In this document: positions 2,674 to 6,767 of the stretch, one piece after another
How positions within the stretch are numbered: position 1 is the first letter of the stretch
Layout: each line of letters opens with the position of its first letter
NCBI RefSeq assembly: GCF_000026545.1
Contig: NC_011601.1
From: Escherichia coli O127:H6 str. E2348/69
Lineage (GTDB): Bacteria > Pseudomonadota > Gammaproteobacteria > Enterobacterales > Enterobacteriaceae
Reading direction: 5' to 3' (one strand)
Length of the DNA: 64,000 bases
Notes under the pieces: generated by a model
Told to the model about the DNA's origin: nothing
The model's input: only the letters and a program-made list of their open reading frames with translations
The model's database searches: none
Translations under genes and position numbers: made by a program

Positions 2674-3639
2674 ATGAATACTGTCGGCACGCCGTTGCTA
2701 TGGGGCGGATTCGCTGTTGTTGTCACCATTATGCTGGCTATCGACCTGTTGTTGCAGGGGCGTCGTGGGGCACATGCCATGACCATGAAACAGGCTGCGG
2801 CCTGGTCGCTGGTCTGGGTGACGCTGTCGTTACTGTTTAACGCCGCTTTCTGGTGGTATCTGGTGCAAACCGAAGGTCGCGCCGTTGCCGATCCACAAGC
2901 ACTGGCCTTTCTCACGGGTTATCTGATTGAGAAATCGCTGGCGGTCGATAACGTCTTTGTCTGGCTGATGTTGTTCAGCTATTTCTCTGTTCCGGCGGCA
3001 TTACAACGCCGCGTGCTGGTGTATGGCGTGCTTGGGGCGATTGTTCTGCGTACCATCATGATCTTCACCGGTAGCTGGCTGATTTCACAGTTCGACTGGA
3101 TCTTGTATATCTTCGGCGCATTCCTGCTGTTTACCGGCGTGAAGATGGCGCTCGCTCATGAAGATGAATCAGGCATTGGCGACAAGCCGCTGGTGCGCTG
3201 GCTACGCGGTCATTTGCGCATGACCGACACCATCGACAACGAGCATTTCTTTGTGCGTAAAAATGGTTTGTTGTATGCCACGCCGCTGATGCTGGTGCTG
3301 ATTCTGGTGGAGTTGAGCGACGTGATTTTCGCCGTGGATAGTATTCCGGCTATCTTCGCCGTGACCACCGATCCGTTTATTGTGCTGACCTCAAACCTGT
3401 TTGCGATCCTCGGCCTGCGTGCGATGTATTTCCTGCTGGCAGGTGTGGCAGAGCGTTTCTCGATGCTCAAATATGGTCTGGCGGTGATTCTGGTGTTTAT
3501 CGGTATCAAGATGCTGATTGTCGACTTCTACCATATTCCGATCGCCGTCTCGCTGGGCGTGGTGTTTGGCATTCTGGTGATGACGTTTATTATCAACGCC
3601 TGGGTGAATTATCGGCATGATAAGCAGCGGGTAGAATAA
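2674..3639 (+). CDS. alx: TerC-family inner membrane protein Alx (putative Mn2+ exporter)
   Basis: 321-aa ORF, multi-pass membrane protein; synteny. Confidence 0.9.
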
Positions 3640-3710
3640 TTTTTAATCTGCCTAAGCCGTGTACTCTGTCATCAACATGAGCACCGTTTTCTCCCTCTCC
3701 CCAAAAGGGG

Positions 3711-5260
3711 CTGTCTCTTATACACAAATCCCCACCCGGGGATTTGTGATGTCTGTCAGTCTGCTTTAGGGGGACTCTTTCCATCCGGTAGTTTCCTTCC
3801 TCCCCGGCAGCGATTTTTTGAACTTTTTCCTCACCCGTTGATCTTCTCTTATATTTCATTTTCTTCGGGTCTGTTATGGTACTTTCTGATTGTTATTCAT
3901 GGGCTAACGAGCAGTTTGGACATGCCCGTCTCGGTGATCCGCGTCGTACACGACGCCTTGTGTCACTGGCCTCTTCTCTCGCTCAGCATGCAGGTCTTTC
4001 TATTGTGAAATCATCCCAGTCCACTGCTCAGGTTGAAGGTGCGTACCGCCTGATACGTAACCCGTCTGTGTCCCCGCAAGCCATTGCCGAAGCCGGATTT
4101 ACCGCCACTGTAAGGGCATGTGAGGCTCATCCGCTGCTCCTCGCGCTGGAAGACACCACCACCATTAACTTCAGTCACAGTACGGCATCTGATGACCTGG
4201 GGAATACCACCACTAACCCGAAGACGCGCGGGCTGCTGGCTCACTCTGTCCTGATGTACGCCCCCGACAGCGCCCTGCCAGTCGGTCTTATCGAACAGCA
4301 GCGCTGGAGTCGTGCCACGGACACCTACGGTGTTAAGCACCAGCGAAAAGAACGTCCCTATGAAGAAAAAGAAAGTTACCGCTGGCAGCAGGCTTCGGAG
4401 CGCATGGCCGAACGGCTGGGGGAGATACAGAAACGGGTAATCACTGTCTGTGACCGGGAAGCGGATATCTGGCATTACCTGCATTATAAAGTCAGCCACG
4501 GGCAGCGCTTCGTGGTGCGTGCAGCACAGAATCGCCGGCTGGAAGAAGCACCCGGCAAGCTCTTCGAACTGCCGGAAGTCCTGGCAACCGCGGGAAGCCA
4601 CACGCTGAATGTGATGCAAAAAGGCGGGCGGGCAGCCCGCCAGGCCCGGATGTTCATCAGTTACAGCGAAGTCAGCATAAAAAACCCCGACAACAGCGGC
4701 CAGGCGCTCCCGCTCACGTATGTCTGTTGCCGGGAGCAGGCAGAGGACGGCGCCTGCTGGCATCTGCTGACGTCAGAAAAAGTGGCGAGTGCCGCCGATG
4801 CGCGACGTATCGTCAGCCATTACGAGCGACGCTGGCTGATAGAGGAATACCACAAGGCGTGGAAAAGTGGTGGTACATGTGTGGAATCGCTGCGAATGCA
4901 GACCCGGGATAACCTCGAGCGCATGGTGGTTATCAAGGCGTTTATCGCGGTGCGGGTGCTGGGCCTGCGGCAGGGCGGTATCAGTGAAGAAACACAAAAT
5001 GACAGCTGTGAGAAAATACTGACGCCGACAGAGTGGAAACTGCTGTGGGTTAAGCTGGAAGGAAAACCGCTTCCGTCACAGATGCCGACACTGAAATGGG
5101 CCTGTCTGAAACTGGCGAAACTGGGGCGATGGCATGACAGCAAACGCACCGGTCGCCCCGGTTGGGTAGTCATGTGGGATGGCTGGTTCAGACTTCAGGA
5201 TATGGTTGAGGGTTACCTGGTGATGAAGTCTCTTGATCAGGAGATCTGATCAAGAGACAG
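3711..5260 (+). mobile_element. IS4-family insertion sequence, IS50/Tn5-like (about 1550 bp)
   Basis: Left end ctgtctcttatacacaaat (3711-3729) and right end agatctgatcaagagacag (5242-5260), inverted; one transposase ORF; flanked by identical ccaaaagggg at 3701-3710 and 5261-5270. Confidence 0.85.
3876..5249 (+). CDS. DDE transposase, IS4 family (Tn5 Tnp-like)
   Basis: 457-aa ORF; LGDPRRT N-terminal motif, catalytic-region motifs ALEDTT, VCDREADI, YERRWLIEEYHKAW; stop codon lies inside the right terminal repeat as in IS50. Confidence 0.9.
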   Translation: MVLSDCYSWANEQFGHARLGDPRRTRRLVSLASSLAQHAGLSIVKSSQSTAQVEGAYRLIRNPSVSPQAIAEAGFTATVRACEAHPLLLALEDTTTINFSHSTASDDLGNTTTNPKTRGLLAHSVLMYAPDSALPVGLIEQQRWSRATDTYGVKHQRKERPYEEKESYRWQQASERMAERLGEIQKRVITVCDREADIWHYLHYKVSHGQRFVVRAAQNRRLEEAPGKLFELPEVLATAGSHTLNVMQKGGRAARQARMFISYSEVSIKNPDNSGQALPLTYVCCREQAEDGACWHLLTSEKVASAADARRIVSHYERRWLIEEYHKAWKSGGTCVESLRMQTRDNLERMVVIKAFIAVRVLGLRQGGISEETQNDSCEKILTPTEWKLLWVKLEGKPLPSQMPTLKWACLKLAKLGRWHDSKRTGRPGWVVMWDGWFRLQDMVEGYLVMKSLDQEI

Positions 5261-5522
5261 CCAAAAGGGGCGAGGGGACTGACCGAGTACTTTTTTGACG
5301 TTGTCATCAGTCTGGAAGCCGCACGTTGGGCTTTATTTTCATGTCAAACAAATGTAACCATTAAGTTGCGAAATATGACTTCTCTTTAAAATCCAGCATA
5401 TTTCGCTTCCCGAAGCTGTAACTTTCCTTATACTCGACCTTGCAAACACTTTGTTACATCCTGAAAGATGCGTCGACAGAACGCACCAGGGATGTGCGAC
5501 AACACAATGAAAGGATCGAAAA

Positions 5523-6767
5523 ATGACTACGCAACATTCACCGGGGCTATTCCGGCGTCTGGCTCATGGCAGCCTGGTAAAACAAATCCTGGTCGGCCTT
5601 ATTCTGGGGATTCTTCTGGCATGGATCTCAAAACCCGCGGCGGAAGCTGTTGGTCTATTAGGTACTTTGTTCGTCGGCGCACTGAAAGCCGTTGCCCCCA
5701 TCCTGGTGTTGATGCTGGTAATGGCATCTATTGCTAACCACCAGCACGGGCAGAAAACCAATATCCGCCCTATTTTGTTCCTCTATCTGCTGGGCACCTT
5801 CTCTGCTGCTCTGGCCGCAGTGATCTTCAGTTTTGCCTTCCCTTCTACCCTGCACTTGTCCAGTAGCGCGGGTGATATTTCGCCGCCGTCAGGCATTGTA
5901 GAAGTGATGCGCGGGCTGGTAATGAGCATGGTTTCCAACCCCATTGACGCGCTGCTGAAAGGTAACTACATCGGGATCCTGGTGTGGGCAATTGGCCTCG
6001 GTTTCTCACTGCGTCACGGTAACGAGACCACCAAAAACCTGGTCAACGATATGTCGAATGCCGTCACCTTTATGGTGAAACTGGTGATTCGCTTCGCACC
6101 GATCGGTATTTTTGGTCTGGTTTCTTCTACCCTGGCAACCACCGGTTTCTCCACGCTGTGGGGCTACGCGCAACTGCTGGTGGTACTGGTTGGCTGTATG
6201 CTGCTGGTGGCGCTGGTGGTTAACCCACTGCTGGTATGGTGGAAAATTCGTCGTAACCCGTTCCCGCTGGTGCTGCTGTGCCTGCGCGAAAGCGGCGTGT
6301 ATGCCTTCTTCACCCGCAGCTCTGCGGCGAACATTCCGGTGAATATGGCGCTGTGTGAAAAGCTGAATCTGGATCGCGATACCTATTCCGTTTCTATTCC
6401 GCTGGGAGCCACCATCAATATGGCGGGCGCAGCAATCACCATTACCGTGTTGACGCTGGCTGCGGTTAATACGCTGGGTATTCCGGTTGATCTGCCCACA
6501 GCGCTGCTGTTGAGCGTAGTGGCTTCTCTGTGTGCCTGTGGCGCATCCGGCGTGGCGGGGGGGTCTCTGTTGCTGATCCCACTGGCCTGTAATATGTTCG
6601 GTATTTCGAACGATATCGCCATGCAGGTGGTTGCTGTCGGCTTTATTATCGGCGTATTGCAGGACTCCTGTGAAACCGCGCTGAACTCGTCAACTGACGT
6701 GCTATTCACTGCGGCAGCTTGCCAGGCGGAAGACGATCGTCTGGCAAATAGCGCCCTGCGTAACTAA
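5523..6767 (+). CDS. sstT: Serine/threonine:Na+ symporter
   Basis: 414-aa ORF, polytopic membrane protein, recognised sequence. Confidence 0.95.

Follow-up and report, generated by a model that had tools for sequence, protein, structure and literature searches.

A palindrome at the right end of the insertion sequence ISEc13, formed by the terminal repeat and an inverted copy of it in the last transposase codons

Introduction

Why should an insertion sequence (IS) close its right end with a perfect palindrome, one arm of which is coding sequence? The question is raised by positions 5228-5260 of a 64-kb stretch of the chromosome of Escherichia coli O127:H6 str. E2348/69 (the window, meaning the whole stretch of DNA that was analysed), where the transposase gene of an ISEc13 element runs into the terminal repeat. 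The initial annotation had described here a 12-bp inverted repeat with a 5-nt loop, two GATC sites (the target of Dam methylation) and the transposase stop codon inside it, had likened the structure to the Dam-regulated inside end of IS50, and had offered termination of read-through transcription as an alternative. We report that the arm lying in the coding sequence is very probably held by purifying selection at the nucleotide level. Our full interpretation, which joins the ISEc13 terminus, the selected arm, Dam control by homology and a role of the stem-loop in RNA, is a serious candidate that we place just short of probable.

The palindrome and the element that carries it

Read directly, positions 5229-5260 are TCTCTTGATCAG-GAGAT-CTGATCAAGAGA-CAG. 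The inverted repeat is indeed there with its 5-nt loop and proved to be one base longer on each side, so that the perfect repeat occupies positions 5228-5258 with two 13-nt arms of 100% complementarity. The 5' arm, GTCTCTTGATCAG (5228-5240, plus strand), is an inverted copy of positions 3-15 of the IS end and encodes residues K451-S-L-D-Q455 of the transposase in the codons AAG TCT CTT GAT CAG. It is followed by the loop GAGAT (5241-5245, plus strand), of which length and sequence differ among relatives, and by the 3' arm, CTGATCAAGAGAC (5246-5258, plus strand), which corresponds to end positions 15 to 3. The stop codon of the transposase gene, TGA at 5247-5249 on the plus strand, lies within this 3' arm as annotated. 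The GATC sites number three instead of the two first counted: 5235-5238 in the 5' arm, 5243-5246 at the junction of loop and arm, and 5248-5251 in the 3' arm.

The palindrome is not a product of chance. No other perfect inverted repeat in the 64-kb window reaches 13 bp (loop of 3-10), and not one of at least 11 bp appeared in 40 dinucleotide shuffles of 16 kb. Folded as RNA it reaches -25.7 kcal/mol (z = -4.2) and as DNA -15.4 kcal/mol (z = -4.8); in both cases none of 200 shuffles was as stable. An Rfam search over 3600-5400 with E values up to 1 matched no family.

Positions 3711-5260 form a complete and intact 1,550-bp ISEc13, a member of the IS50 group of the IS4 family, and the palindrome therefore does lie where it had been placed, at the 3' end of the transposase gene and the right terminus of an IS. 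This identity is near certain: over all 1,550 bp the element is 100% identical to RefSeq copies annotated as 'IS4-like element ISEc13 family', including that of E2348/69, the comparison being with these annotated copies. A search of 5,426 complete E. coli genomes gave matches to ISEc13 in 2,991 of them, at up to 32 places in a single genome. The transposase gene (3876-5249, plus strand; an open reading frame annotated in RefSeq as ISEc13 family transposase) encodes 457 amino acids, which align with the Tn5 transposase over residues 6-453 (E=6e-84) and contain the Pfam domains Tnp_DNA_bind (PF14706), DDE_Tnp_1 (PF01609) and Dimer_Tnp_Tn5 (PF02281). The DDE residues align with those of the Tn5 transposase (EDTT, CDREAD, IEE), and the Y-(2)-R-(3)-E-(6)-K signature, part of the definition of the IS4 family (PMC2266710), is present as YERRWLIEEYHKAWK. 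The right terminal repeat (5242-5260, minus strand), which reads CTGTCTCTTGATCAGATCT from the tip and contains the GATC sites 5243-5246 and 5248-5251, is the transposase-binding end; the 3' arm of the palindrome belongs to this repeat, which the transposase binds and cuts.

Conservation of the inverted copy

For comparison we collected 80 related loci from other genomes and five closer relatives. In the elements from Enterobacterales, Salmonella salamae and Serratia, whose transposases share 71-77% of their residues with that of ISEc13, the final 33 nt show no difference from ISEc13, although the codons just before them vary freely. In a metagenome element (L085; 65-66% protein identity) change is confined to the loop region and a 12-bp stem is found. 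Taken over the relatives of 65-77% protein identity the 5' arm is 100% conserved. The stem is also intact in six further copies of ISEc13 and in decayed E. coli copies, which have diverged by ~6-7% over their 3' 300 nt.

Among the distinct right ends of the relatives the terminal TCAAGAGACAG is identical in 59 of 59. A 9-nt core of the inverted copy, GTCTCTTGA, is exact in 26 of these 59, and ~8 more differ from it by one or two changes. In a neighbour-joining tree all core-bearing elements fall into one large clade, with one gain and three losses of the core. This clade comprises the subclade of ISEc13, a subclade from Vibrio, Photobacterium and Alteromonadales, and elements of Xenorhabdus and Pseudoalteromonas; the core is absent from IS50 and the deep branches and has been lost in a Photorhabdus subclade and in L008 and L047. 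Most of the clade copies only end positions 3-11, and the inner GATC is missing wherever the codon there is GAG, GAA or GAC.

Could the palindrome be a functionless by-product, arising where a conserved C-terminal K-S-L-D peptide adjoins a conserved terminal repeat, or simply inherited by common descent? K-S-L-D/E is conserved at the protein level, no covariation is seen (see below), and IS50 and the elements of the Photorhabdus subclade work without this palindrome. The choice of codons speaks against it. Serine and leucine have six codons each, yet 27 of 29 distinct genes with Ser-Leu at the position of the arm use TCT-CTT, where ~3% joint use is expected, TCT making up 17% of the serine codons and CTT 18% of the leucine codons at the other sites of the same genes. 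When 164 columns are ranked by codon identity among pairs with less than 62% protein identity, those of S452 and L453 come 4th and 5th (0.57 and 0.54); at the other sites synonymous change has reached saturation, with a median of 0.24. Nor would a by-product account for the 33 nt that are 100% identical at 71-77% protein identity next to codons that differ. We consider a by-product improbable, and nucleotide-level purifying selection on the 5' arm very probable. In sliding windows codon identity at the 3' end of the gene is mildly raised (0.42-0.52 vs 0.37 overall) and other windows are equally high, so that the signal is specific to the columns of S452 and L453.

Synonymous constraint is also seen at a second place, ACC ATC CTT GAA GG, ~25 nt 5' of the arm in the codons aligned to residues 442-446, where 32 of 36 genes have ACC and 30 of 32 have CTT. 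This patch (T442/L444), which includes the near-palindrome CCTTGAAGG, belongs chiefly to the Vibrio/Alteromonadales subclade.

Structure or binding site

The hairpin spans 31 nt in 15 of the relatives, 32 nt in two and 34 nt in eight. Because the spacing of the arms varies, a structure would be favoured over two phased protein-binding sites, as far as loop length can tell. The position of the stop codon varies as well: TGA stands 14 nt from the tip in IS50 and most of the family, and among the relatives the stop is found in the 3' arm, in the loop or just past K-S-L-D. This, too, favours a structure, and mechanisms that need the stop within the stem are disfavoured for the same reason. One of them would have the hairpin slow the ribosome at the last codons and so tether the nascent transposase near its own DNA end, which would produce a preference for acting in cis such as the Tn5 transposase is known for. 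In ISEc13, with its stop in the 3' arm, the ribosome must melt the whole stem. But eight relatives with the core stem (L017, L020, L021, L025, L027, L041, L048 and L057) stop after KSLD or in the loop, and we regard ribosome pausing as highly unlikely.

Of 11 changes in the near-core variants (by hand count), 9 are transitions after which G-U pairing would persist in the minus-strand RNA alone, and all 8 near-core elements fold more stably as minus-strand than as plus-strand RNA. This asymmetry can be explained by coding constraint, since only that type of transition is synonymous in these codons.

Dam sites and the inside end of IS50

As IS50 reference we used IS50L of the Tn5-bearing plasmid NZ_CP024153. 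A 121-nt IS50 query matches at least 231 plasmids at 99% identity or more, beside aph(3')-IIa, and the frame adjoining the match is the Tn5 transposase with the ochre codon of IS50L. The last 19 bp of ISEc13 are identical to the IS50 inside end at 19 of 19 positions. The IS50 end, ...GGGATCAAGATCTGATCAAGAGACAG, contains three clustered GATC sites within 15 bp and only a 5-bp GATCA/TGATC stem. The likeness to the IS50 inside end that had been proposed therefore stands for the end sequence and the Dam sites and falls for the palindrome itself.

The GATC sites of the terminal repeat occupy end positions 10-13 and 15-18. It is established for IS10 and Tn5 that Dam methylation controls them through GATC sites located in the transposon ends and in the transposase promoter (PMC3347997, citing Roberts 1985 and Yin 1988), and the analogy with IS50 holds because the terminal 19 bp are identical. 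If ISEc13 behaves as its homologues IS50 and IS10 do, its right end would be used less when the end GATCs are fully methylated by Dam, and replication, which leaves the end hemimethylated, would favour transposition just afterwards. That the right end of ISEc13 may be linked to methylation and replication in this way, as first suggested, is a fair inference. The distribution of GATC fits a regulatory use. The motif is missing from 1,291 bp of the IS body, where 4.1 sites are expected from shuffles (P = 0.015); three sites stand in the last 26 bp, one at 3840 near a putative promoter and one more at 3936.

The putative transposase promoter region (3818-3844, plus strand) consists of TTGAAC (3818-3823), 15 nt and TGATCT (3839-3844), the latter containing GATC 3840-3843. 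The spacing from TTGAAC to this GATC, which starts 16 nt past TTGAAC, is the same in relatives; a promoter scan made no call at 3818-3844. Taking the Dam-sensitive promoter of IS50 as the model (PMC3347997), we infer that the region may be a Dam-sensitive transposase promoter. Adjoining this GATC, the 9-mer TCTCTTATA, which stands at 3714-3722 (left-end positions 4-12), recurs directly at 3845-3853. Its second copy lies 23 nt 5' of the transposase start codon and might belong to the -10 region.

A role of the palindrome in DNA is the main rival of a role in RNA. The inverted copy could be a non-cleavable pseudo-end that binds a second transposase monomer or titrates transposase beside the true end, or the third of a cluster of GATC sites that strengthens control by Dam or SeqA. 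The copy does reproduce most of the transposase recognition sequence, keeping positions 3-15 with AA instead of CT at positions 1-2; exact Watson-Crick identity is kept even where an RNA wobble would be tolerable; and the GATC cluster of the IS50 inside end, the depletion of GATC in the body against three in the last 26 bp, and the established Dam control of the Tn5 and IS10 ends (PMC3347997) all speak for it. Against it stands that most of the clade copies positions 3-11 only and loses the inner GATC with GAG, GAA or GAC, that spacings of 31, 32 or 34 nt are awkward for a fixed helical phase, and that IS50 functions without an inverted copy. We regard such a role in DNA as possible though rather unlikely.

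Termination of transcription at the two ends

A stable stem-loop at the very end of a gene recalls an intrinsic (rho-independent) terminator that stops transcripts reading out of or into the element, and the left ends of related elements bear real terminators. At the right end, however, a U-tract is lacking after the stem on both strands, the sequence past the stem being AGCCAAAAGG on the plus strand (AG, then variable host DNA) and TTCATCACC on the minus strand. The flank past the tip differs at each insertion site, and a terminator scan of 3400-5700 found eight other candidates without calling the palindrome. With 6 of 13 pairs being G-C in addition, we rejected an intrinsic terminator, and termination of read-through, the alternative raised at the outset, is a very remote prospect. 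An outward or inward promoter built from TTGAAG...TCTCTT or from TTGATC was rejected as well, the hexamers matching poorly and the scan having called nothing. Within the transposase gene there is a terminator-like site in antisense orientation (4623-4641, minus strand), GGCGGGC-TGCCC-GCCCGCC followed by TTTTTGC, which could stop transcripts entering from the right end.

The left end of ISEc13 has a hairpin of its own, CACAAATCCCC-ACCC-GGGGATTTGTG with 11-bp arms (3723-3748, plus strand), overlapping end positions 13-19. In the relatives L008, L013, L021-L026, L032-L048 and L081-L086 a G+C-rich stem of 10-14 bp stands at IS positions 16-45; its sequences differ and yet stay complementary, and it is followed by 6-9 T and then by TTGAAC. 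Stem and T-run together have the sequence of a canonical intrinsic terminator, predicted to face incoming transcription. In ISEc13 the T-run lies ~65 nt further inward (3814-3819), apparently displaced by an insertion or duplication. About 21 distinct elements have both the left terminator and the right core, 13 have neither, and a single element has the left one only.

Target-site choice

For 30 distinct insertions with both flanks available, the reconstructed empty site is almost always a hairpin with the duplication centred on its loop. At the sites with a clean duplication, 13 of 18 insertions lie on a perfect inverted repeat of at least 7 bp centred no more than 3 bp from the insertion point; at control positions in the same flanks this holds for 0.3% of 1,280. 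Many of the targets are terminators of the order A-run, stem, loop, stem, T-run, and others are CCCTCTCCC...GGGAGAGGG units. The six further copies of ISEc13 (L094-L099) are all in hairpin loops, two of them in terminators shared by convergent genes, agp/yccJ and ybaY/MGMT. Hairpin-loop targeting extends a known tendency: PMC1525189 reports that Tn5 favours palindromic targets whose duplication has G/C at its ends and that ISRm22, also of the IS4 family, targets REP.

The ISEc13 of the window follows the same pattern. It is inserted in the alx-sstT spacer, where the empty site forms a hairpin of -20.4 kcal/mol with its loop in the middle of the duplication. Of the host hairpin, the left half with the loop, CCTCTCCCC-AAAA-GGGG..., remains at 3694-3710 (plus strand), 55 nt past the alx stop codon, and the right half CGAGGGG at 5271-5277 (plus strand), the remainder after the insertion of the IS.

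Some further arrangements were observed at the insertion sites. In the Photorhabdus subclade (L001-L011, L052, L055, L075, L078), which has lost both the right core and the left terminator, five clean sites, a small sample, are G+C-rich partial palindromes without A/T runs and are not obvious terminators. In Photorhabdus thracensis (L011) the flanks are perfect 28-bp inverted repeats of each other and there is no direct duplication. In Alishewanella jeotgali the flanks of L035 and L061 are swapped: the sequence to the left of one matches that to the right of its counterpart, a sign that two copies have recombined.

A possible role of the stem-loop in RNA

What, then, might the selected arm be kept for? 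We propose that the selected feature would be the stem-loop itself, acting on transcripts that cross the right boundary of the IS. By landing in the loops of terminators and REP units, elements of this clade would destroy hairpins that host mRNAs need, and would be read into from either side. At the left end the element would meet this with its own terminator just inside. At the right end the gene ends 12 nt short of the tip, so that the final codons together with the terminal repeat would be the only material for a hairpin. This hairpin would give outgoing transposase mRNA and incoming host mRNA a defined 3' end that is protected from exonucleases, and would insulate transcript ends without terminating transcription. 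REP hairpins are known stabilisers of mRNA that guard against 3' exonucleases, as stated in the background section of PMC1525189. We put this role at transcript ends forward tentatively, as a reading that may well turn out otherwise.

Several observations weigh against our interpretation. The covariation test gave it no help: 91.8% of the cells were paired, a single double change occurred in 352 cells, and 170 of 500 shuffles did equally well. The test is weak, and no covariation can be read from it, because the 3' arm is invariant, being fixed by transposase recognition. A conserved sequence-specific DNA site would give the same pattern of conservation. Only 6 of 13 pairs of the stem are G-C. 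About two evolutionary events underlie the co-occurrence of the left and right hairpins. The deep branches and the Photorhabdus subclade lack the right hairpin, and yet hairpins are the targets of some deep-branching elements, so that target choice and the end hairpins are only loosely linked.

A wider proposal would make the ISEc13 clade an IS50-type lineage specialised for the loops of terminators and REP units, with replacement hairpins at both of its ends. We think this somewhat unlikely. Were it true, the mRNAs of the flanking host genes, often a convergent pair sharing a terminator, would still have a protected 3' end, and the insertion would be close to neutral. A bidirectional terminator would stand inside the left end, the right palindrome would be a device that spares the host and not a transposition signal, and the 35-bp solo palindrome described below would be its footprint after a deletion.

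Element boundaries and a solo palindrome

The extremities of the IS10 and IS50 subgroups are 5'-NT (PMC2266710), and both ends of ISEc13 begin CTGTCTCTT, that is with 5'-CT. The left terminal repeat, CTGTCTCTTATACACAAAT (3711-3729, plus strand), is of the outside-end type; the identical 19-mer is found in most relatives, and it agrees with the right repeat at 13 of 19 positions. It is identical at 17 of 19 positions to what we take to be the IS50 outside end. The element is flanked by a 10-bp target-site duplication, CCAAAAGGGG, present as a direct repeat at 3701-3710 and 5261-5270. The empty site, 240 nt with the IS and one copy of the duplication removed, was recovered uninterrupted and at 100% identity in Nissle 1917, ATCC 11775 and other strains, which settles the boundaries and the duplication. 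The duplication is 8 bp in the six other copies of ISEc13 and 8-10 bp in the relatives; like the 9 bp of IS50 these lengths amount to about one helical turn, as is characteristic of the IS4/IS50 group.

In the searched literature ISEc13 is only named in passing, in papers on isolate genomics or tools. A review of the IS4 family does not mention it; where that review speaks of palindromes and hairpins it concerns other matters, and for the IS50 subgroup it reports no hairpin at the right end and no targeting of terminators.

In E. coli NEBExpress/B the trmL-lldD spacer contains a solo perfect palindrome of 35 bp, CTGTCTCTTGATCAGGAGATCTGATCAAGAGACAG (L088, 1499-1533; also in L089), without a transposase gene or a target duplication. 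It agrees exactly with the sequence that would remain after a deletion between 7-bp direct repeats GTCTCTT, one in the left terminus (3713-3719) and one at the inner arm (5228-5234). Its flanks derive from two different REP-like units that lie ~75 bp apart in other strains. A mobile mini-element was considered and rejected, there being one orthologous locus, no target duplication and flanks from two REP-like units. The palindrome would be better explained as a deletion remnant. Remnants of nearly precise excision were reportedly described for Tn10 and Tn5 by Foster and colleagues in 1981.

Implications

The right end of ISEc13 as such is known IS50-type biology. A copy of the tip that is constrained at synonymous sites and is phylogenetically paired with a left-end terminator is undescribed in the papers that we searched. 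If our interpretation holds, selection on synonymous sites can preserve, in an IS with a DDE transposase, a hairpin that the element forms from its terminal repeat, and both dN/dS work and IS annotation should allow for such a constraint. It would also follow that the asymmetry of outside and inside ends, the stop codon within the end and the GATC of the end are not peculiarities of Tn5 and would be ancestral to a wide group of gammaproteobacterial elements. The left terminator, the preference for hairpin loops and the right hairpin would together suggest how an IS may reach ~30 copies per genome cheaply for its host.

Comparison with known systems

The closest known system is the inside end of IS50 and Tn5. 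The two share the identical 19-bp terminus with TGA 14 nt from the tip, two GATC sites in the end and a third just inside, a partner end of the outside-end type and a homologous transposase. IS50 differs in having no inverted copy of the tip and only the 5-bp mini-palindrome. Nor is targeting of hairpin loops known for it; PMC1525189 (citing Goryshin 1998 and Lodge 1988) reports that it prefers 9-bp targets that are palindromic and have G/C at their ends. The inner terminus of IS10 in Tn10 and its promoter pIN are alike in placing GATC sites in one terminus and near the transposase promoter, and in the logic of activation after replication (PMC3347997, citing Roberts 1985). IS10 belongs to another subgroup of the IS4 family with other end sequences, and a terminal palindrome has not been reported for it.

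With REP or palindromic-unit stabilisers of mRNA the right end shares a stable stem-loop of extragenic type without a U-tract. The ISEc13 hairpin differs from them in lying in a mobile element with one copy per element, and a protective role would be assigned to it by analogy. The nearly precise excision of Tn10 and Tn5 is alike in that the remnant is as expected from a deletion between short direct repeats within the IS; in ISEc13 these repeats are 7 bp long and belong to the left terminus and the inverted copy, and the event is read from sequence only.

Structures that block read-in are known from the ends of other insertion sequences, such as the left-end terminator of IS200 and the fold-back structures of IS10 and IS50 read-through transcripts. 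They are alike in placing a stem-loop within the first 50 nt of an IS end, and the ISEc13 clade shows this arrangement in exemplary form at its left end. The right hairpin of ISEc13 is unlike them in lacking a U-tract, in using the terminal repeat as one of its arms and in lying in coding sequence. Finally, elements that target REP or other palindromes (ISRm22; IS1397 and ISKpn1; ISPpu9, ISPpu10 and IS621) likewise insert at the centre of palindromic extragenic hairpins (PMC1525189). Each of these is directed to one specific repeat family, whereas the ISEc13 clade hits many unrelated terminators and REP-like hairpins and leaves duplications of 8-10 bp.

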